DNA from: Patescibacteria group bacterium | Lineage (GTDB): Bacteria; Patescibacteriota; Minisyncoccia; Phycocordibacterales; Phycocordibacteraceae | Direction: 5' to 3' | Assembly (NCBI GenBank): GCA_019752595.1 | Contig: JAIELV010000001.1 | Coordinates: 312,486-376,485 of the forward strand | DNA: 64,000 bases | Shown here: in pieces, positions 7,188 to 61,010 of the stretch | Position numbering within the stretch: position 1 is the stretch's first letter | Layout of the letters: each line of letters begins with the position of its first letter | Notes under the pieces: model-generated | Told to the model about the DNA's origin: nothing | Databases searched by the model: none | The model's input: only the letters and a program-made list of their open reading frames with translations | Translations under genes and position numbers: made by a program

Positions 7188-8528
7188 ATGCATATGAGGC
7201 CGCTCCTTGCCATACTCCTGTTGGCACTATTCCCTTTTACATTCGCGTACGCTGAAACGCGTTCTATTTTGTTCCCCATCGACGGCGAATACAGTTTTCG
7301 AAACGACTTCTCCGAACCGCGGGACGGGGGTGCGCGCCAGCACTTAGGTATCGATATCATTGCAAGCAAAATGACTCCACTCGTTGCAGTTGCGGACGGC
7401 ACGATTACATTCATCGCAATCCCGCAGGCTTCGTGGGGCTACGCCATCACCCTTGAAGACGCAGATGGTTATTCCTACCGTTACCTGCACATCAACAACG
7501 ACACCCCTGGCACCGACGACGGTGTGGGGGGAACGCAATACGCATACGCGCCGAACCTCTACCGCGGAACGCGTGTGGTAAAAGGACAACTCTTAGGCTG
7601 GGTTGGAGATTCAGGAAATGCGGAATCCACAACGCCACACCTTCACTTTGAAATGCGCGATTCTTCGCGAACAGTATTCAATCCGTACGATTCTCTGTAC
7701 GCAGCTTCAGGCGGAATCACTTCAGGAAAATTTGAAGGTCTCACCACAAACCCCGGGCCCGAGGCAACACCCGAGGAAGAAGCCCAGTTCATTGCCACCC
7801 GCCAGCTACAGGAAGGACTGGTGGATAGACAGGTAGGTGAACTGCATACCAGACTCAAAATATTGAAATACTACACTGGCGAAATAACGGAAACGTATAC
7901 TGCAGCAACACGTGAAGCGGTTCGCAAATTCCAAAACACTGAAGGACTGGCGGCAACAGGTATTGCAGATTCTCTGACACAAAAACGCCTAGAAGAACGC
8001 GCGAAAGCAATCGCTCCTGTGCCCACACAGACCGCAACGAAAACAAGCACTGAGATGTCTCAAGGCTCATCAGGCGATGCAGTGAAAGCAGTTCAGGAAC
8101 AACTGATTGCGCTTGGCTACTTAAAATCAACTGCAACAGGATATTTCGGCCCTTTGACGCACGACGCCGTGATTGCGTTTCAAAAAGCAATGGGTATAGA
8201 CCCTATTGGCATCGTGGGACCAAAAACAAAAGCGGCACTTACAACCACTACTCCATCTACCGCTACTACCTCGGCAACTTCGGCTACGCCCGACCCGACA
8301 ACCGCGTCCACATTTACATTTACAAAACGACTTGAAGTCGGCGTTGCTAACAGCGAAGTAAAAGAGCTTCAGAAATTACTTTCAACTCTTGGATATTTTA
8401 AAGAAGAAGCCACAGGCTATTTCGGTAACATCACAAAAACAGCGGTGATTGCATTCCAGAAAGCAGAAGGTATAGAACCTTTAGGATTTGTGGGGCCCGC
8501 CACCCGCGCTGCCCTCAACGCAAAATAA
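7188..8528 (+). CDS. M23 family metallopeptidase with three C-terminal peptidoglycan-binding (PG_binding_1) repeats
   Basis: Start at MHMRPLL plus signal peptide. HLGIDII...PHLHFEM M23 motifs. Three GYFGPLT-DAVIAFQK repeats. Confidence 0.85.
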   Translation: MHMRPLLAILLLALFPFTFAYAETRSILFPIDGEYSFRNDFSEPRDGGARQHLGIDIIASKMTPLVAVADGTITFIAIPQASWGYAITLEDADGYSYRYLHINNDTPGTDDGVGGTQYAYAPNLYRGTRVVKGQLLGWVGDSGNAESTTPHLHFEMRDSSRTVFNPYDSLYAASGGITSGKFEGLTTNPGPEATPEEEAQFIATRQLQEGLVDRQVGELHTRLKILKYYTGEITETYTAATREAVRKFQNTEGLAATGIADSLTQKRLEERAKAIAPVPTQTATKTSTEMSQGSSGDAVKAVQEQLIALGYLKSTATGYFGPLTHDAVIAFQKAMGIDPIGIVGPKTKAALTTTTPSTATTSATSATPDPTTASTFTFTKRLEVGVANSEVKELQKLLSTLGYFKEEATGYFGNITKTAVIAFQKAEGIEPLGFVGPATRAALNAK

Positions 8529-8555
8529 AAAGTGCTATACTAAGTATAGCACTTT
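8529..8555. terminator. Perfect 12-bp-stem hairpin between convergent M23 peptidase and dnaX
   Basis: aaagtgctatac-taa-gtatagcacttt. Confidence 0.6.
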
Positions 8556-9588
8556 AGGTGGTTGAGGAGAGCTCCATGACCGCGAGTTCAAGCGGAAGTT
8601 CGGGAATTGGGGAACGTACAGTTTCTATAGAAGCAAGGATAATTTTGCGAAGTGCGTCGGAGTTAATTTTTGAAGCGGTTTCTTTTGAAAGCGATGCCAA
8701 GAAGTCACGGTCGACGTCGGGTAAATCCGCGGAAAGCTCTTCTCCGAACGCAGGCGCGTAGCGCATGAGAAGCAAAATGCGCAACCGTTGAAGAAGAAGC
8801 ATGGCAAACACATTCATGTCCACGTTTGCTTTGACCGCTTCCCCTATTGCGGAAAGGGCGCCATCAGCTTTTCCTTCATGAAGACCCGAAATTACGCGTT
8901 GAATGAGTTCGACTCTCGGCGCACCAGTGACTGAGGCGACTTCTTCGAGGGATACTTTTTTGTCGGATGAGGACGCAAGAATTTTTTGCAATATAGAAAG
9001 CGCATCGCGGAACGAGCCATCAGCAAGGAACGCAATCAATTCCCCCGACGCTTTCTCAAGGGTAAAACCCTCAGCCTTCGCCACTTTCGTCACCATTTCA
9101 GAAAGTACTTTTTGTGTTGGCTTCTTAAACGTGAACACCTGACAGCGCGACTGAATAGTGTCGGGTACTTTTTCCAATTCTGTGGTCGCCAAAATAAACG
9201 CGACATGCGAAGGCGGTTCTTCCAGTAATTTCAAAAAAGCATTAAAAGCGCCTTTCGAAAGCATGTGTACTTCGTCAATAATGTAGACCTTCCTCTTTGA
9301 TTCGAACGGCATCACCGCAGCTTCTTCGCGAAGCTGGCGCATATTGTCGACACCTGTGTTTGAAGCGGCATCTATTTCATGAATATCGGCGTCTGACGCT
9401 TCAAGCTCGCGCGCCAGAATGCGCGCGATTGAAGTTTTCCCTGTACCGCGCGAACCAACAAACAAATACGCGTGTCCTGAATGTTTTTCCTTTAACGCTC
9501 CCTCAAGCGCTTTGATGATATGGTCCTGCCCCAAAACTTCTTTAAAAGAAGAAGGTCGGTATTTCTGATAGAGCGAAGACCCTTGCAT
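8554..9588 (-). CDS. dnaX: DNA polymerase III subunit gamma/tau (short form)
   Basis: Start at internal MQGSSLYQKYRP. Walker A GSRGTGKTS. Box VYIIDEVHMLS and sensor motifs. Confidence 0.85.
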   Translation of the reverse strand: MQGSSLYQKYRPSSFKEVLGQDHIIKALEGALKEKHSGHAYLFVGSRGTGKTSIARILARELEASDADIHEIDAASNTGVDNMRQLREEAAVMPFESKRKVYIIDEVHMLSKGAFNAFLKLLEEPPSHVAFILATTELEKVPDTIQSRCQVFTFKKPTQKVLSEMVTKVAKAEGFTLEKASGELIAFLADGSFRDALSILQKILASSSDKKVSLEEVASVTGAPRVELIQRVISGLHEGKADGALSAIGEAVKANVDMNVFAMLLLQRLRILLLMRYAPAFGEELSADLPDVDRDFLASLSKETASKINSDALRKIILASIETVRSPIPELPLELAVMELSSTT

Positions 9589-53780: not shown

Positions 53781-54275
53781 ATGGAGAACATCGGGTTTAT
53801 TCAGTTTTTTCTTGCAGATGTCGTCGCACATCCACTTACCACCATACTCGCAGTCTTTTCATTTATTTTACTTATTGCTGTTGTATGGCTCGCCCACCGC
53901 ATAGATGTACTTACTCGCGGTGGCGATGGAAAATCAATTGAAAGCACGCTTACTGCACTTTCTCTACGCGTAGAAAAATTAGAGCGCCATGCGAGCGCAG
54001 CAACTGAGGGTTTGAAAAATCACGAAGAGCGAATACAGCGCGCAGTCTCGGGCGTTTCAGTAAAACGCTTTGATCCATTCCAAAATGCAGGTGGCCAGCA
54101 GAGCTTCGCATCTGCACTTTTGAACGAAAACGGCGACGGTGTGGTGTTGTCTGGTATCCATTCAAGAGACGGCGTCCGTGTGTACGCAAAGGAAGTGAAA
54201 AAGTTTGCGTCTGAACGCGAACTTTCGGAAGAAGAAACTGGTGCAATCGCCGACACGAAAGCAAAACTCGGCTAA
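53781..54275 (+). CDS. DUF4446 family protein
   Basis: N-terminal TM. RFDPFQNAGGQQSFASALLNENGDGVVLSGIHSRDGVRVYAK matches the DUF4446 core. Confidence 0.6.
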   Translation: MENIGFIQFFLADVVAHPLTTILAVFSFILLIAVVWLAHRIDVLTRGGDGKSIESTLTALSLRVEKLERHASAATEGLKNHEERIQRAVSGVSVKRFDPFQNAGGQQSFASALLNENGDGVVLSGIHSRDGVRVYAKEVKKFASERELSEEETGAIADTKAKLG

Positions 54276-54886
54276 TCTTCACGAGATTGACGGGGAGCGG
54301 ATTTCTTTTTGCGCGATCGATAGAGACGCATATAATCCCGATGCCCTTCAGGTCCGAGTGTTGAGACTTTCCCTGGACTCAAATCTCCCCATTTTTCACG
54401 AAACGCTTCCTCCTCTCTCCCTTCCCACGGGTTCCTAATTACTTTAGGCATAACCTCCTCAATGCCGTGGTAGCGACAATAATTTACAAAGTTCGGATCA
54501 ACTCTCTGCACCTGACCTATTGTTTTACCGTTATGTACAAGCCGATAATATTCCTCAGGATCTCCATACGGTCGGTAATGCTCCACAATTGAGAGAAGGC
54601 CGTTTTTCTTAAAAAAATTGTACATTTCTCTTTCTTCCTGATCTCCATATCGAAGTTGTTTAGGAGTTGGCCGTTTTCCAGACTCTAATGCGTTGTATGC
54701 GCGAACTAATCGGACAATCTCCTTCAACTCTCCGTAGACACCCCCTTCGCGTGCGGTTGCAATAAGTCTTGGATTTATTCTCTCGAGTGTAGCTATGTCC
54801 ATACCTAAGTATTTCCGTTTGTAGACACCGAGAACTTGAGTCCCAGACTTTCTCGTATTTAACTCGCGTGTTCCTCTTTCAACCAT
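54272..54886 (-). CDS. Hypothetical protein
   Basis: 205 aa from the internal M. No motif recognised. Confidence 0.4.
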   Translation of the reverse strand: MVERGTRELNTRKSGTQVLGVYKRKYLGMDIATLERINPRLIATAREGGVYGELKEIVRLVRAYNALESGKRPTPKQLRYGDQEEREMYNFFKKNGLLSIVEHYRPYGDPEEYYRLVHNGKTIGQVQRVDPNFVNYCRYHGIEEVMPKVIRNPWEGREEEAFREKWGDLSPGKVSTLGPEGHRDYMRLYRSRKKKSAPRQSRED

Positions 54887-54952
54887 TCTTTTAGTATAGG
54901 GTCTTGAAAAATTATTTGCTAACAACGTCAATTCGTGGTTTTCTGCTGTGTA

Positions 54953-56446
54953 ATGGCTGAAAACGGCAACATCTGCAAACAACCTGTAGTCGCTATCGTT
55001 GGACACATTGACCACGGCAAGACGACGTTGTTGGACTACATCAGAAAATCATCTGTAGCCGCAAAAGAAACAGGCGGTATTACTCAGCGCGTATCTGCAT
55101 ACGAAGTCACTCACACAGGTGCTGAAGGCACTCGCATGATGACCTTTATAGACACTCCAGGCCACGAAGCGTTCCAAAAGATGCGAGTGCGCGCAGGCTC
55201 TGCGGCTGATATCGCCATTCTTATAGTTGCAGCTGACGACGGTGTAAAACCACAGACACAGGAAGCATACAAAGCAATTCAGAATGCAAAGATTCCTTTT
55301 ATTGTCGCTTTCACAAAAATAGACAAAGACACCGCAAACGTCGAGAAGGCAAAAGAATCGGTCATGCGCGAGGGAATTTACCTTGAAGGCTTGGGTGGCG
55401 AAATTCCTTTTGCACAAATCTCAGGTAAGACAGGCGCAGGCGTACCAGAACTCCTCGACCTCATCGCACTTGTTTCAGATGTGAACGCGATAACCTGCGA
55501 CTCTGAAAAACCCGTAGAAGCAATTGTTATTGAGTCATCACGTGATCCGAAAATCGGCATTGCCGCAACGGTTATTATCCGCCAAGGAACTATTGAAACA
55601 GGCGGATTTGCCGTTACTGGAAAAGCATTCGCCCCACTTCGTGTTCTTGAAGATTTCGCAGGTAACAAAGTAACTTCTATCCGTTGCGGAAAACCTGCAC
55701 GCATCACTGGTTTTACAGAAGAGCCGAAAGTGGGTTCCTTGGTCACAACGGTGAAGACAAAGAAAGACGCAGAAAATGCAGTTTCGGATGCACTGAGAAA
55801 TGCTTCGGTAAAACAAGGGGCGTACGCAGATGAATCAAAATTCGTAGTGCGGTTAATTCTAAAAGCAGATACCGCGGGCTCGCTTGAAGCACTTGAACAT
55901 GAAGTGGCGAAAATATCTCACGAACGTGTTTCAATTCTCACCGTCCTCTCTGGTGTTGGTTCAATTACCGAAAGCGACATAAAACCCGTCATCGGTTTTT
56001 CTCCTTCCCTGATTTTAGGCTTCAACGTGAAAGCTGAAGGAAGCGCGAAAGACCTTGCAGAACGTCAGCACATCACTCTTGAAACCCGCTCTATCATTTA
56101 CGAACTTGCTGACTGGCTCAAAGAAAAAATACTCGAACTCGCACCACCTGAAGAAACAAAACCTGGAGTAGCGCAAATTATTAAGCACTTCTCAACCTCG
56201 GGCTCAAAGCAGGTCATCGGCGGTCGCGTAACGGAAGGAATACTTTACCGCGACGACCGCGTAACAATTATGAGAAGAGGTATCGAGGTGGGCCCAGGAA
56301 AAATAATTAACCTCCAATCGCACAAAGCGGATGTGGGAAGCGTACCTGAAGGAGAAGAATTTGGTGCACAGATAGAAACGAAAGCAGACATTATCGCCAA
56401 CGACGTAATTGTCGCCCAGAAGAAAAACATCAATGATAAAAGATGA
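54953..56446 (+). CDS. infB: Translation initiation factor IF-2 (N-terminally short form)
   Basis: G domain [29 protein letters not shown], and the C-terminal beta-barrels. Confidence 0.85.
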
Positions 56447-56744
56447 TCGCATTCTCTCGGCTATTCATACCGCCGCAGCGGAGTTTATAAACCGCGAGTC
56501 AAATCGCCGTTCATTAGTCACCGTAACGAGAGTTGGTTTCCTCGATGAGAAAAACGTACAGATTTTTATTTCTGTATTTCCCCAGAAAGACTTACATGCC
56601 GTGATGGATTTTCTAGGGAGACAGGAAAAAGAATTCCTCGTGTATCTGAAAAAAACCGTCAAACTGCATTTTGTGCCCAGAATGCGCTTTCTCCCTGACC
56701 CTGACATGGGACTACCACCCCCAGCGCCCGTTGAGGAAAAGTAG
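56433..56744 (+). CDS. rbfA: Ribosome-binding factor A
   Basis: Start [13 protein letters not shown]-like RbfA pattern. Overlaps the infB stop by 14 nt. Confidence 0.75.
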   Translation: MIKDDRILSAIHTAAAEFINRESNRRSLVTVTRVGFLDEKNVQIFISVFPQKDLHAVMDFLGRQEKEFLVYLKKTVKLHFVPRMRFLPDPDMGLPPPAPVEEK

Positions 56745-56837
56745 TTTCACCTGCAATCTAGATCTGATAAGGATTTAATACGTCATCCGTACCCTTGAGA
56801 AATTGCAGTACACATTGTTACCACCTATAATTTTAGC

Positions 56838-57566
56838 GTGGGTGTACGCTATTCATTCAATGAGCATTTCTTTGATAATTGGAATAAAGAAATGGCATAC
56901 GTATTAGGATATATCTTCGCAGACGGAAGCCTTGAATGCTCGCCGCGTATACGAGCACACTACCTACGGATTACCAGTATTGATTTAGAAAGAATTGTTG
57001 CCTTTAAGAAACTCCTTGCGTCTAGCCACACCATTACCAAAACGAAACCTCCCGTTGGGGAAACACAATACATGCTCCGCATTGGTAGTAAGAGGCTGTA
57101 TAAAAGCCTTCTTAGGTATAGACTCCGCCCTAGAAAATCCTTATCCGTAAAAATGCCTGAGATACCCAATCGGTTTCTGAATGATTTTGTAAGGGGATAT
57201 TTTGATGGCGATGGTTGTGTATATATTGAAAAAGCGAGGGGTGAAAAAGGAGGTAAAATTTTGAAAGGAATGCGTGTAATTTTTACAAGTGGAAGTAAAA
57301 AATTTCTTGAAGCTTTGGAGAAAAAAATTTGTGAACGGGCGGGTATAAAAAAGAAAAAAGTCACAGTAGCGCGAAGAAGTTTTCAGTTACGATACAGCAC
57401 CGACGACGGAGTTACGTTATTCAAGTTTTTATATAGAGATGTTAGTGGTATGTGCTATATGAAAAGGAAGTTGGCAAAGTTTAATGAATACTTTAAGCTT
57501 CGCCCAAAGCGCATTGATTCCGAAGTGAAATACGTATTAGAATGCGTAAACGGCACGGTACATTAA
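56838..57566 (+). CDS. Free-standing LAGLIDADG homing endonuclease (two-motif, monomeric type)
   Basis: Motifs LGYIFADGS and VRGYFDGDGCV, each followed by the expected basic-rich DNA-binding saddle regions. Confidence 0.8.
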   Translation: MGVRYSFNEHFFDNWNKEMAYVLGYIFADGSLECSPRIRAHYLRITSIDLERIVAFKKLLASSHTITKTKPPVGETQYMLRIGSKRLYKSLLRYRLRPRKSLSVKMPEIPNRFLNDFVRGYFDGDGCVYIEKARGEKGGKILKGMRVIFTSGSKKFLEALEKKICERAGIKKKKVTVARRSFQLRYSTDDGVTLFKFLYRDVSGMCYMKRKLAKFNEYFKLRPKRIDSEVKYVLECVNGTVH

Positions 57567-57590
57567 TTTTGTCTTGCCTACTCTGTCCAT

Positions 57591-57666
57591 GGCCTGGTGG
57601 CGAAGAAGCTAACGCGGCGGTCTGCAAAACCGCTATACAGGGGTGCGAATCCCCTCCAGGCCTCCA
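57591..57666 (+). tRNA. tRNA-Cys (anticodon GCA), CCA encoded
   Basis: Acceptor GGCCUGG/CCAGGCC, anticodon arm GCGGU-CUGCAAA-ACCGC, T-arm AGGGG-TGCGAAT-CCCCT, 3' UCCA. Confidence 0.85.
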
Positions 57667-57728
57667 CAAACTTTTTAGAAAGAATAAGGAATGCGTCTAG
57701 AGTTTTTTGGTATAATGCGTGTACCATT

Positions 57729-58265
57729 ATGTCGCGCAAACGTTCTTGGACGGTGGAGGAACTGAAAAAAGCTGCTGCAAGTTCAACTAGTTACCGCCAG
57801 GTCATGAAAAAACTGAATCTGCGTGCTGCGGGTGAAAATTACGCTCAACTTCAAAAGTATTTAAAAGAGAACGACATAGACACTCAACATTTCAAAGGTA
57901 TTGCCTGGAATAAAGGTTTGCGAGGAATCGGCAAACCTCAGATACCACTTGAAAAAATCCTTGTTGAGTACAGTACATATCAAAGTTTTAAACTTAAAAA
58001 GCGTTTATTTAATGCAAAGTTGAAGAAACCATCTTGTGAGGAATGTGGCTGGGCGAAAATTGCCGAAGGAGGTTATTTACCTTTAGAGCTTGACCATATC
58101 AACGGTAACAGACATGATAATCGATTAGAGAACTTGCGAGTTCTTTGCCCGAACTGCCATAGCTTAAAACCTACACATCGTGGCAGAATGGGGAGAGGAA
58201 AAACGAAAAAACCTCTAAGTCGGGATGGTGAAATTGGTAGACACGCAACACTTAAGATGTTGTGA
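57729..58265 (+). CDS. HNH homing endonuclease (phage-type, N-terminal WT..EL helix-turn-helix-like module)
   Basis: LELDHINGNRHDNRLENLRVLCPNCHS HNH motif. The upstream open frame (from 57597) overlaps tRNA-Cys; start taken at the internal ATG. The 3' end overlaps the first 47 nt of tRNA-Leu. Confidence 0.75.
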   Translation: MSRKRSWTVEELKKAAASSTSYRQVMKKLNLRAAGENYAQLQKYLKENDIDTQHFKGIAWNKGLRGIGKPQIPLEKILVEYSTYQSFKLKKRLFNAKLKKPSCEECGWAKIAEGGYLPLELDHINGNRHDNRLENLRVLCPNCHSLKPTHRGRMGRGKTKKPLSRDGEIGRHATLKML

Positions 58266-58305
58266 CCGAAAGGTCGTGTGGGTTCGATTCCCACTCCCGG
58301 CACCA
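58219..58305 (+). tRNA. tRNA-Leu (anticodon UAA), long variable arm, CCA encoded
   Basis: Acceptor GUCGGGA/UCCCGGC, anticodon arm CAACA-CUUAAGA-UGUUG, T-arm GTGGG-TTCGATT-CCCAC, 3' ACCA. Confidence 0.85.
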
Positions 58306-58312
58306 CTATAGA

Positions 58313-59842
58313 TTATCTATCATTCCCTATCCGAAACTGATACAACGTCGGCGGTAAGAAAAAATAGATAGGATTAAATTTTGCCTTAAATGTTGAAAAA
58401 CCTTTCCACGAGGAATCTTCTCCCTGCTTCCAAAAATTTCCAAGATCGATAAAACGTACTCCTGATGCAAAAGATTCCTTAAACCATTTATCAAAAAGCC
58501 CCGTCATCAAAGGCTCGTCGCGCACTTCAGGTAAGAAAAAACCACCTTGATAGTAGGACAGCGGAAGCGCGGATGAGCGTAAATGTGCCACGCCAGCGAG
58601 AATTTTTCCGTCGCGCTTTCGACGAGCGACGAGGAATGTCATTTTGGTTTTTGGGTTTTTGCGTCGAAAATCCATTTCATACAGCATTCCGTCTTTCAGT
58701 GTGAGCGGTAATGTGCTTTTGCTGTAGGCTTTTCTAAATTCGTCAAAATCAGTTTCTTCAAGTGAATACGTATCGGCGCATTCAGATGCAAAACGCTTTC
58801 GGTCTCGCTTTCCTGTTTCTGACCACTCTCGCCAATACTCTGCGGTAAGCGGTATAAACCCAATTTTATACGCAGGCTTATCTGAAAACGCAATCCATTT
58901 TTTCGGAACGTCCAAGCGTCCCATTCTCTGCCACATCACCAGCCGTACGGGCTTTTTTTTGTCGTGAGACAACGGCAGCACCTCGGGCTCATGATCTCCT
59001 TCGTATTGCTCAAAAGAAAACGGCCACAAATTCCAATAACTTCCTCGCGGTTTCTCGCCTATGCGTGCAGGATGAAAATAACGAGGAATGCTTTCAAACG
59101 TGTTCAAGTCAGGCCACTGCCGAAGTGGGCGGTACCCGTCAGTGGCACATTTCTCAACGGTACCCCTTTGAAAGAGACCGACATAATTCCAGCTAAACAG
59201 CCACTCCCTCAGTGAGTGGAAAACAGTTCGTATCGGGATAAATAATTCTTTGTTCTTATAGACGTTTGCCAGCAGATACCCCTGCGGAGAAAGTCTCTGA
59301 TGAACAACAGTAAGAAATTCCACGTCAGCAGACAATAATGATGGTTGCTGTCCGCGAAACAAATCAATAACAATGAGGTCAAATTCTTCTTGTATTTTTT
59401 GTACCGCGTTCTTTGCGTCGTCGCAGATCATCGTGGGAAACGGATACGGCGCATAGAGTTTTAATTCTTTCGCGAGTGCAATCATTTCGGGGTCATGCTC
59501 AACAACAGTAAGCGTGGCTTCGGGAAATACACGCGAAATCATTTTCAATTCCCCACCACCACCAAGGCCGAGAAGCAGTATTTTTTTAATTCGCTGAGTA
59601 CCTCGGTACCGAGTAAGCACCTCAAGCGCATACTTCCACATAGCGTGAACCTCAGACCCCGTCTGCTCAATTCCATCAACACTTACCTGCCACGAACCGA
59701 ATTTTCGAATCGCAGTAATCGTTCCGTTTTTCTCCGACTGTCGGACAATAGATTCTGAAAACCAAGACATTAATGAGCATTGTACCCGAAGCGAGTATCG
59801 ATAAAGCATTGCCTCAAACGAAAAATTAGTTACTATACACAA
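58313..59842 (-). CDS. Fusion protein: spermidine-synthase-like SAM methyltransferase/aminopropyltransferase fold (N-terminal) plus FemAB/GNAT-like acyltransferase-like domain (C-terminal)
   Basis: ILLLGLGGGGE...VVEHDP...ICDDA...DLIVIDLF spermidine-synthase-like motifs. The C-terminal ~250 aa resembles aminoacyl-transferase/FemAB-type folds. Weak. Confidence 0.5.
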   Translation of the reverse strand: MCIVTNFSFEAMLYRYSLRVQCSLMSWFSESIVRQSEKNGTITAIRKFGSWQVSVDGIEQTGSEVHAMWKYALEVLTRYRGTQRIKKILLLGLGGGGELKMISRVFPEATLTVVEHDPEMIALAKELKLYAPYPFPTMICDDAKNAVQKIQEEFDLIVIDLFRGQQPSLLSADVEFLTVVHQRLSPQGYLLANVYKNKELFIPIRTVFHSLREWLFSWNYVGLFQRGTVEKCATDGYRPLRQWPDLNTFESIPRYFHPARIGEKPRGSYWNLWPFSFEQYEGDHEPEVLPLSHDKKKPVRLVMWQRMGRLDVPKKWIAFSDKPAYKIGFIPLTAEYWREWSETGKRDRKRFASECADTYSLEETDFDEFRKAYSKSTLPLTLKDGMLYEMDFRRKNPKTKMTFLVARRKRDGKILAGVAHLRSSALPLSYYQGGFFLPEVRDEPLMTGLFDKWFKESFASGVRFIDLGNFWKQGEDSSWKGFSTFKAKFNPIYFFLPPTLYQFRIGNDR

Positions 59843-59973
59843 ATCCCGCCCACAGCTGCAGTTGGTAAGCCGCCTACGGCGTCTTGCTCCAGCTGCGCTC
59901 GGACGTCATGAGAGCAAGCTCTCGCGACGCTCCTCGCTGGCTGGAGTAGAGCAGTTTTTTAAAGTACAGATAT

Positions 59974-60046
59974 CCGCCCTTAGCTCAGTTGGTAGAGCAG
60001 CTCCCTCTTAAGGAGACGGTCGTAGGTTCGAATCCTACAGGGCGGA
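59974..60046 (+). tRNA. tRNA-Lys (anticodon CUU), no encoded CCA
   Basis: Acceptor CCGCCCU/AGGGCGG, anticodon loop CUCUUAA, T-arm GTAGG-TTCGAAT-CCTAC. Confidence 0.8.
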
Positions 60047-60484
60047 CTCGCGAAGCGAGTCCTGTAAAGAGAGCGCTGGTGGGCGCATCCTTACCCTGAA
60101 AGCCTGCCCGGTGCGCGTAGCGCCAGGCTTACAGGGCGGACTGAAGCGTAGCGTAAGGACGCCCTAGCAAGTTCGGGGAACTTGCGTGTAGGATTCGAAG
60201 ACCTTGTGAGCATTTTTTCAGAGCATGCGAATGAAAAAATCCACAAGGTGTACTGCTCCCGTAGGGAGAGAATCCTTCCCTATGTACAGGGCGGACCATG
60301 ACAAAAACGCCTCCCATGCGGGAGGTTTTTTGCTTGGTCCGCGGGCGCAGGTATATTTTTGTTTACCGAAGGTAAGGCAAAAATACCGAGCCGGGGATCG
60401 CGGAAAATCTCCGTCAGGAGATTTATCCGTGTCCGGACCGCGACGAGAGCTGTGACGACGGAGGTCCTGCCTACAGAGCGGACT
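60036..60484 (+). repeat. Four direct copies of the tRNA-Lys 3' segment TACAG(G/A)GCGGAC(U): 60036-60048 (in the tRNA), 60130-60142, 60285-60297, 60472-60484 (one mismatch), separated by hairpin-rich spacers that include a degenerate T-arm copy
   Basis: Read directly. gtaggattcgaagacc at ~60189 mimics the tRNA-Lys T-arm gtaggttcgaatcctac. Confidence 0.7.
60304..60331 (+). terminator. Hairpin cctccc-atgc-gggagg followed by T6 (intrinsic terminator-like)
   Basis: Lies within the tRNA-Lys to tRNA-Leu spacer. Confidence 0.5.
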
Positions 60485-60594
60485 TATAGTAAAGTTCCTG
60501 ATATTGTATAGAACAGTCGCTGGGGTAAGCAAAGCTTTCCTCAGCTCGTTCGAAGAACATAGAAATGCTAACATCTCTATGTTCCTTCTCACTC

Positions 60595-60675
60595 GCTGGG
60601 GTGGTGAAATTGGTAGACACGCCTGCCTTAGGAGCAGGTCCGCAAGGGTTGGAGGTTCGAGTCCTCTCCCCAGCA
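60595..60675 (+). tRNA. tRNA-Leu (anticodon UAG), long variable arm, no encoded CCA
   Basis: Acceptor GCUGGGG/CCCCAGC, anticodon arm CCUGC-CUUAGGA-GCAGG. Confidence 0.85.
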
Positions 60676-60728
60676 CAAAACAGCTAATTCCCAACAAATG
60701 TGCTACACTTAGTATAGCACAAGGTGGG

Positions 60729-61010
60729 TTAATTCCCTCCTGGAAGCCCGACGCCAGGGAAAATGGTATTCGTCGCGATACGAAGGATGGTAAAGACGGA
60801 GACCATGATAAAGAACCCAATAACTCCCCAAATCATGTGTGTTCTTCCTGTTTCGCGTGCTTTCGGGTCGTCAGATTTACTGATAAACGTAATCATACCG
60901 TTCACGAAATACCACATCGCGAGCGCGAATAACAAAAGAATTATTGGCTGTATTATGAGCCCCGTTACTTTTCCGATAAATACCGTGAGTGCGTCGTTGG
61001 GTGGATTCAT
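60729..61010 (-). CDS. TrbC/VirB2-like pilin-type small membrane protein (paralog 1)
   Basis: Two hydrophobic helices separated by a short polar loop. About 93 aa. Confidence 0.5.
   Translation of the reverse strand: MNPPNDALTVFIGKVTGLIIQPIILLLFALAMWYFVNGMITFISKSDDPKARETGRTHMIWGVIGFFIMVSVFTILRIATNTIFPGVGLPGGN

Follow-up and report, generated by a model that had tools for sequence, protein, structure and literature searches.

The window analysed here, a 64,000-nucleotide stretch from a Patescibacteria group bacterium (contig JAIELV010000001.1, positions 312,486 to 376,485), carries two unrelated nuclease genes, of the LAGLIDADG and HNH families, interleaved with genes for tRNA-Cys and tRNA-Leu(UAA). 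We propose that both are free-standing homing endonuclease genes (HEGs), each tied to one tRNA gene as its target or anchor and spreading by intronless homing, a reading to which we assign a probability of roughly 0.7. The two genes and their tRNAs are arranged as follows.

56838-57566, plus strand: LAGLIDADG open reading frame (ORF), GTG start, 242 amino acids (aa), of a tRNA-Cys-linked lineage, free-standing and single-chain (two-motif)
57591-57666, plus strand: tRNA-Cys(GCA) with encoded CCA, by ARAGORN and Rfam (60 bits)
57729-58265, plus strand: HNH ORF, ATG start, 178 aa, free-standing
58219-58305, plus strand: tRNA-Leu(UAA) with encoded CCA, by ARAGORN and Rfam (54.7 bits)

An earlier interpretation made from the letters of the window (the sequence-only reading) had placed both ORFs, both tRNAs and their overlap at these positions, and the window sequence, ORF list, ARAGORN and Rfam all agree with it: the LAGLIDADG ORF ends 24 bp before tRNA-Cys, and the HNH stop codon ends at 58265, 47 nt into tRNA-Leu(UAA). 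It had also regarded both genes as free-standing, outside any intron or intein, and this is borne out, as an Rfam search of 56300-58800 returned the two tRNAs and, even at E ≤ 10, no group I or II intron or other family, including at 56745-56837 where it had suggested looking for intron-like structure. Both tRNAs are uninterrupted and both ORFs intergenic, so neither nuclease is intron- or intein-encoded; a free-standing HEG between same-strand tRNA genes is instead the arrangement of the phage tRNA-cluster HEGs SegB and F-Tfl. GC content is 0.375–0.42 over both ORFs compared to ~0.46–0.48 in the flanks. The 64-kb window holds no further copy of either family. Both proteins have identical counterparts in NCBI (P0001 for the 242-aa LAGLIDADG protein), encoded on a Patescibacteria contig of 831,433 bp, which makes the host a member of the Candidate Phyla Radiation (CPR). 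An exact-sequence look-up returned no contig for the LAGLIDADG protein and a single 1.8-kb contig, from the same strain, for the HNH protein.

At least 585 GTDB species genomes contain relatives of the HNH protein, and at least 546 JGI metagenome stretches contain members of the LAGLIDADG family; the best 80 loci of each (species representatives for HNH) were fetched. Such genes are thus not unusual in this phylum, whereas the sequence-only reading had held free-standing copies beside tRNA genes to be unusual in cellular chromosomes. The first clue to a fixed association was that the C-terminal tails of homologues in other genomes are translated tRNA 5' ends. In 78 of 79 informative GTDB loci the start of a same-strand tRNA-Leu(UAA) falls within -48 to +31 nt of the end of the HNH stop codon; 37 of these 78 junctions overlap and 39 lie at 0 to +12 nt, with 11 loci sharing the -47/-48 geometry of the window. 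The linkage is independent of the upstream neighbour, which is usually tRNA-Cys at 44–124 bp and elsewhere a different tRNA or an ordinary host gene (RmlA/RmlB-like enzymes).

The same HNH family was also sought in viruses. Among 80 IMG/VR contigs carrying homologues at most 52% identical to the window protein, 78 contain tRNAs, and tRNA-Leu(UAA), which accounts for 61 of the 414 tRNAs in these loci (15%), directly flanks the HNH gene in 51 (43 upstream, 8 downstream). The nuclease therefore lies on the 5' flank of tRNA-Leu(UAA) in the CPR and mostly on its 3' flank in phages. Because the HNH gene tracks this tRNA in both settings and on either side, the tRNA gene itself appears to be the recognised sequence, and tRNA-Leu(UAA) is probably both the anchor and the target of the HNH lineage. 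HNH-tRNA-Leu(UAA) units 65–71% identical to that of the window were also seen on contigs labelled Elusimicrobia or Omnitrophica (L021, L029, L040, L076), which reflects either spread past the CPR or mis-binned contigs.

The LAGLIDADG family is organised in a comparable manner. All 27 closer homologues (39–48% identity) lie directly 5' of tRNA-Cys, 20 of them overlapping it. A sister lineage (33–42% identity; L112-L161, metagenome contigs) occupies the interval between tRNA-Met(CAU) and tRNA-Asp(GUC), and in 28 of 30 loci its stop codon and the beginning of tRNA-Asp are -24 to +13 nt apart. Single cases adjoin tRNA-Phe (L044), tRNA-Leu(UAG) (L068) and tRNA-Leu(GAG) (L149), and in three loci (L108, L117, L150) a LAGLIDADG gene sits in the slot downstream of tRNA-Cys. 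Viral homologues in IMG/VR are at most 35% identical and have no tRNA linkage. Judged by these sequence contexts, each HEG lineage is specialised on one tRNA, the LAGLIDADG lineage on tRNA-Cys(GCA) and the HNH lineage on tRNA-Leu(UAA). The idea of a hotspot of intronless homing, raised by the sequence-only reading, is therefore upheld as regards mobile elements, but the locus is no random hotspot, since each family is tied to one tRNA.

Related genomes show that both genes come and go at this position. The conserved order is infB-rbfA-[LAGLIDADG]-tRNA-Cys-[HNH]-tRNA-Leu(UAA)-tRNA-Lys(CUU)-tRNA-Leu(UAG), with infB adjoining the locus in 62 fetched loci. In the window the genes at the left are:

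54935-56446, upstream of rbfA: infB, short (TIGR00487, 2e-116)
56409-56744, plus strand: rbfA, the left edge of the variable interval; divergent, with Pfam and NCBIfam RbfA matches below cut-off, but syntenic

Ordered by identity of IF-2 to that of the window, the informative relatives are occupied as follows.

Window, IF-2 100% (reference): LAGLIDADG gene present; HNH gene present
L164-L167, IF-2 84–92%: LAGLIDADG gene absent (rbfA, 115–160 bp, tRNA-Cys); HNH status unreadable, as the contigs end
L169 and L170, IF-2 73% and 72%: LAGLIDADG gene absent; HNH gene absent
L168, IF-2 72%: LAGLIDADG gene present; HNH gene absent, with a 33-bp Cys-Leu spacer
L171 (748,944-bp contig), IF-2 70%: LAGLIDADG gene absent; HNH gene present

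The endonuclease-free alleles of the rbfA-tRNA-Cys-tRNA-Leu interval that the sequence-only reading had proposed to look for thus exist, and because of these empty sites the two genes are not conserved at this position in all relatives. Among related genomes each gene is present in some and missing from others at its site, as is expected of a mobile HEG. All four occupancy states are observed, and the double occupancy of the window is the rare one: no LAGLIDADG gene lies 5' of tRNA-Cys in any of the 80 HNH-positive loci, and no HNH gene is found in the 22 informative LAGLIDADG-positive loci, in 20 of which tRNA-Cys and tRNA-Leu(UAA) are 0–81 bp apart. The presence of two families side by side is therefore rare, in support of the sequence-only reading. 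Where other loci have long gaps between tRNA-Cys and either tRNA-Leu or the HNH gene, these were considered as possible sites of decayed HNH genes, and were found to contain ordinary host genes or unrelated ORFs. The contigs of L164-L167, from three sequencing runs, all end inside or at most 21 nt after tRNA-Cys, a pattern that could arise if HEG-positive and HEG-negative alleles coexist and interrupt the assembly. In L168, a 217-aa ORF without a Pfam match (7993-8646) begins inside tRNA-Leu(UAA).

An alternative that deserves attention is that both genes have been passed down vertically in the CPR since ancient times, serve the host in some way at tRNA loci, have been lost repeatedly and are not now mobile. 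Possible roles would be to provide a promoter for the downstream tRNA, to maintain the tRNA gene or to act as a defence nuclease. In keeping with such a function, the HNH protein has a mean identity of ~66% across CPR classes, invariant catalytic residues and a fixed position in at least 585 species, a promoter directly upstream would drive the tRNA as well, and there is a weak match to NCBIfam ZorE, although this arises solely from the HNH motif. However, close relatives of identical synteny lack one or both genes, the same HNH family adjoins tRNA-Leu(UAA) in phages, the inserts are lower in GC than their flanks, some copies of the LAGLIDADG family contain internal stops, and the ORF list shows no defence-system partner genes at the locus. 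Nor does HNH similarity follow host relatedness. Among 42 genomes with both IF-2 and HNH at the locus, pairwise HNH identity averages 66.5%, is flat across IF-2 identities of 36–60% (Spearman 0.04) and is higher than IF-2 identity in 99.8% of pairs. In L171, the nearest relative with an HNH gene, the HNH protein is just 54% identical to that of the window, while hosts at 36–48% IF-2 identity have copies that are 60–72% identical and one metagenome copy reaches 81%. These comparisons point to HNH similarity being decoupled from host descent, and we consider a resident host function unlikely.

The tRNA genes themselves may have moved with the nucleases. The tRNA-Cys of the window matches at 76 of 76 positions that of L168, which is LAGLIDADG-positive at 72% IF-2 identity, and differs across the D, anticodon and T arms from that of the LAGLIDADG-negative relatives at 84–92% IF-2 identity; the rbfA-tRNA-Cys spacer shows no similarity between the window and L164-L167. 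The variant tRNA-Cys thus seems to have been inherited together with the LAGLIDADG gene, and the identity with L168, the divergence from the nearest relatives and the dissimilar spacer together fit replacement of the whole rbfA-to-tRNA-Cys segment along with it. This tRNA has an unusual elbow, with a D-loop (AAGAAGCTAA) lacking G18G19 and a T-loop (TGCGAAT) with G at the expected U55; the TAG in the D-loop of the variant is the stop codon of many LAGLIDADG ORFs.

Several observations weigh against the homing interpretation. The best 80 loci were picked by similarity to the query, so that counts among them are no measure of prevalence, and the flat relation between HNH and IF-2 identity could result from saturation under strong constraint. 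The LAGLIDADG proteins of the window and L168 are ~60% identical despite their identical tRNA-Cys, which one recent joint transfer fails to explain simply. The variant tRNA-Cys occurs more often in LAGLIDADG-positive loci (14 of 28) than in LAGLIDADG-free ones (14 of 56) but is not confined to the former. In tRNA-Leu, a C-G/G-C difference in the anticodon stem between HNH-positive and HNH-negative loci (66 of 79 against 4 of 20) is absent among close relatives and may be phylogenetic in origin. A clean resistant-allele signature was not found in tRNA-Cys or tRNA-Leu, either in the fetched loci or in close relatives. Finally, a scan for consensus -35/-10 sequences flagged neither of the promoters proposed below.

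The LAGLIDADG ORF matches Pfam LAGLIDADG_3 (46.5 bits, cut-off 22.5) and phrog_4645 (1.6e-40), with LAGLIDADG_1 scoring under its cut-off (16.7 against 23.1). Its two motifs are LGYIFADGS (containing D29) and VRGYFDGDG (containing D125), and G24, A28, D29, G30, G120, F122, D123, G124, D125 and G126 are unchanged in 25 homologues. The AlphaFold2 model (pLDDT 89.9, pTM 0.89) has the pseudo-dimeric alpha-beta-beta-alpha-beta-beta-alpha fold of the family, and Foldseek aligns it with I-Tsp061I, I-AniI, E-DreI (an I-DmoI-derived chimera) and I-OnuI-type enzymes at probability 1.00 and E 2e-8 to 1e-6, the best PDB match being I-Tsp061I (2dch, E 2e-8). The family profile also matches I-Tsp061I (1.3e-7) and I-DmoI in PDB by sequence. 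Internal stops do occur in some members of the family.

The HNH ORF matches Pfam HNH_3 (31.1 bits, cut-off 24.8) and HNH (26.7 bits, cut-off 21.4) and phrog_10822 (5e-43). D122, H123, N135 and H144, together with the zinc-binding residues C103, C106, C140 and C143, are unchanged in 29 homologues. Its AlphaFold2 model combines an N-terminal three-helix domain (residues 9–47) with a beta-beta-alpha core (strands 120–123 and 136–139, helix 141–145), for which Foldseek gives only weak HNH-domain matches in PDB (E ≥ 0.16). The phage-type affinity assigned to this gene from its sequence is confirmed by matches to 261 phage records and by a nuclease domain 46% identical to that of T5 hegA/F-TflIV over residues 82–156 (E 6e-13). 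Pfam found no GIY-YIG domain in it, and there is no homology to SegB. The invariant catalytic residues and confident core models make both proteins look functional, and the two ORFs are intact and probably active HEGs.

A decay phase is part of HEG life cycles, and the genes could alternatively be relics without nuclease action, either decaying fixed copies or DNA- or RNA-binding (for example maturase-like) proteins. The junctions of both genes with their tRNAs lend this some credit. Most LAGLIDADG homologues terminate in G-x-V-A-K(-W), which is the translated tRNA-Cys 5' end, whereas in the window this junction is rearranged, with its 24-bp spacer and a degenerate tRNA-end copy:

57552-57559, plus strand: GGCACGGT, resembling a decayed tRNA-Cys 5' end, within the final LAGLIDADG codons (..N-G-T-V-H, then stop)

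The tRNA-Cys 5' end itself reads GGCCTGGT, and L168 has an exact copy of it at the matching ORF position, its actual tRNA being 135 bp further on. The HNH gene has for its part lost its own stop codon, and the bI3 maturase is among the PDB neighbours of the LAGLIDADG model. On the other hand, both ORFs are full length and retain every family-invariant catalytic and metal-binding residue, the models of the protein cores are confident, and no intron RNA is present as a maturase substrate. We regard this alternative as quite unlikely.

The tail of the HNH protein is best understood from its junction. The conserved core spans residues 1 to ~156, typical homologues are 156–164 aa long and lack a tRNA-encoded tail, and residues 164–178 of the window protein are the translated 5' half of tRNA-Leu; in the model, the tRNA-encoded part (residues 155–178) has pLDDT < 50. 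The reading phase at the ORF-tRNA junction varies among HNH loci (35/14/29), which rules out the overlapping tail as a conserved coding feature. Given this variable phase and a disordered tail, the overlap is a by-product of tight abutment. As to the two options offered by the sequence-only reading, a genuine stop-codon overlap or an untranslated tail, the overlap recurs at the junction in 37 of 78 HNH loci, and the tail is neither conserved nor structured.

Each gene is preceded by a putative promoter.

56803-56831, plus strand: putative LAGLIDADG-gene promoter (TTGCAG, 17 nt, TATAAT), read from sequence
57708-57716, plus strand: extended -10 element TGgTATAAT, putative HNH-gene promoter, 12 nt 5' of the ATG, read from sequence

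The LAGLIDADG box is followed after 6 nt by the GTG start codon, the whole arrangement covering 56803-56840. A TATAAT-like box ends 6–8 nt 5' of the start codon in 13 of 22 tRNA-Cys-type LAGLIDADG loci, often after TTGCA(G/A), and 6–9 nt 5' of the ATG in 42 of 73 HNH loci. This conservation across loci, together with the sequence itself, suggests leaderless or near-leaderless mRNAs, whose promoter would move together with the gene and drive transcription on into the tRNA.

We propose that the enzyme would cut a HEG-less allele in or beside the highly conserved tRNA gene, and that repair of the double-strand break from the HEG-carrying copy would bring in the HEG, its own promoter and adjoining tRNA sequence by co-conversion. 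The tRNA gene would offer both a target and flanking homology kept across very distant hosts, while the insertion itself would fall in the intergenic spacer beside it. The ORF would be expressed from the -10 box 6–12 nt 5' of its start codon, with transcription running on into the tRNA; where the ORF overlaps the tRNA, as for HNH here, maturation of the tRNA by RNase P would sever the stop codon, which may hold nuclease levels low. The double occupancy of the window would then represent two independent invasions of neighbouring sites.

tRNA genes are classic integration sites, and the sequence-only reading had considered that the interval might be a decayed prophage or integrative-element remnant inserted at a tRNA gene. 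Both families do have phage relatives, the inserts are low in GC, and partial tRNA-end repeats lie nearby, between tRNA-Lys and tRNA-Leu(UAG). Yet there is no integrase ORF or other phage gene in 54000-61000 and there are no att-like direct repeats bracketing the interval (56600-58400). Each insert consists of a single ORF with its promoter, the sequence beyond the ORF amounting to ~60–90 bp, and lies on the 5' side of the tRNA instead of at its 3' end; hundreds of genomes carry the same single-gene inserts at this position, and LAGLIDADG and HNH genes occur independently of one another. We therefore discard this suggestion as highly improbable.

It is conceivable, though in our view doubtful, that the two genes belong to an undescribed large system of isoacceptor-specific HEG-plus-tRNA cassettes in the CPR and phages, in which each endonuclease recognises a single tRNA gene and which replace resident tRNA alleles by co-conversion across phylum-level distances. 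Such cassettes may combine a leaderless-mRNA promoter that also drives the tRNA with a stop codon fused to the tRNA 5' end. If so, homing would drive horizontal tRNA-gene replacement in cellular genomes, and this would explain the spread of odd tRNA variants (tRNA-Cys without G18G19 and with G55), as well as tRNA-end duplications and mini-helix scars 5' of tRNA genes.

Such duplications are found elsewhere in the window and in the fetched loci. The spacer between tRNA-Lys(CUU) and tRNA-Leu(UAG) is 547 bp long and GC-rich (~0.55), with no Rfam family or convincing ORF. Four copies of the 13-nt tRNA-Lys 3' end (TACAGGGCGGACT) lie at 60036-60484 with spacings of 94, 155 and 187 bp, and may be scars of repeated insertion or excision at the tRNA 3' end. 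A decayed LAGLIDADG gene was also sought in this spacer by tblastn with the Leu(UAG)-linked LAGLIDADG protein of L068, which returned nothing. Within 60514-60594, the first 8 nt of tRNA-Leu(UAG) (GCTGGGGT) are duplicated without mismatch 76 bp 5' of that tRNA; beyond the duplicate come a mini-helix resembling an acceptor stem, a hairpin (60555-60584) and a CT-rich tract. This ~65-nt module, there with a tRNA-Cys 5'-end copy, also precedes tRNA-Cys in the LAGLIDADG-free L164-L167, and the observation takes in L168 7690-7826 as well; the module may be the footprint of endonuclease genes since lost, or else an independent small element or leader. Across all fetched loci, 13 of 409 tRNA genes have their own first 8 nt copied exactly within 150 nt upstream, mostly Cys, Lys(CUU) and Leu(UAG), compared to 0 of 386 within 150 nt downstream and ~1 expected by chance.

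Further upstream, a 247-aa ORF on the minus strand (54272-55015), between DUF4446 and infB, overlaps the listed infB start and has no match in Pfam, NCBIfam or PHROGs. Its slot is variable, with relatives carrying unrelated or weakly similar ORFs of 104–218 aa, or none.

With free-standing HEGs of this kind, tRNA genes would rank as a second major type of insertion site in the chromosomes of cells, colonised by lineages specific for single tRNA species. If the enzymes cut tRNA genes, they would provide a route for horizontal replacement of tRNA alleles among distant CPR lineages and between phage and host, supply many natural long-site nucleases of predictable target, and account for recurrent contig breaks and ORF/tRNA-overlap annotations in CPR assemblies. 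The fusion of ORF and tRNA and the start-adjacent -10 box suggest a portable, host-independent design for expression.

The closest mechanistic precedent is SegB of phage T4, a free-standing GIY-YIG HEG in a tRNA cluster that recognises a conserved tRNA T-loop motif, cleaves tRNA genes and drives preferential inheritance of itself and the flanking tRNA genes by co-conversion (PMC2330249). The segB ORF ends at a tRNA 5' processing site, and maturation of tRNA-Arg has been proposed to cut between its last codon and stop codon (PMC2330249). SegB of T4 and T6, free-standing between tRNA genes and with its ORF end at a tRNA processing site, would thus work as we propose here; it differs in its GIY-YIG fold and its restriction to phages, where its association with tRNAs is widespread and no isotype preference has been reported (PMC13096335), whereas the lineages of the window are isoacceptor-specific and reside in cellular chromosomes.

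By protein family, the nearest relative of the HNH gene is T5 hegA/F-TflIV. The F-Tfl enzymes are presented as site-specific endonucleases with ORFs in the T5 tRNA cluster (PMC2330249). hegA lies 24 bp downstream of a tRNA on the same strand in that cluster; it shares with the window HNH gene the nuclease family and a free-standing position amid tRNA genes, but is 227 aa long with another N-terminal part, is phage-borne and sits beside tRNA-Ile and tRNA-Ser, while the window gene is chromosomal in the CPR, belongs to a lineage tied to tRNA-Leu(UAA) and overlaps its tRNA. SegF, SegG and MobE-type HEGs also occupy an intergenic spacer beside a conserved gene. They spread by cleaving that gene in genomes that lack the HEG, and flanking markers are co-converted (PMC2330249). 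For these, homing was shown experimentally in phage co-infections, whereas the setting here is cellular chromosomes, where DNA might be brought together by transformation, phage or episymbiont contact.

The LAGLIDADG protein shares its fold and single-chain two-motif architecture with I-Tsp061I, I-DmoI and the LAGLIDADG enzymes of CPR rRNA insertions. LAGLIDADG genes in the CPR are known from rRNA introns and rRNA operon spacers (PMC11270868, PMC8172020); those of rRNA introns have the same host phylum and, like the window gene putatively, target highly conserved RNA genes. They are encoded inside group I introns or insertions of 16S and 23S rRNA genes, whereas the window gene is intergenic and ribozyme-free, lies 5' of tRNA-Cys and has its own putative promoter. 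In open-access papers and bioRxiv preprints we found no account of endonuclease lineages in CPR chromosomes that flank tRNA genes and are isoacceptor-specific. Compared with these systems, the two genes belong to known endonuclease families and most likely act by intronless homing, itself a known mechanism; what is new is their cellular setting and strict tRNA specificity.

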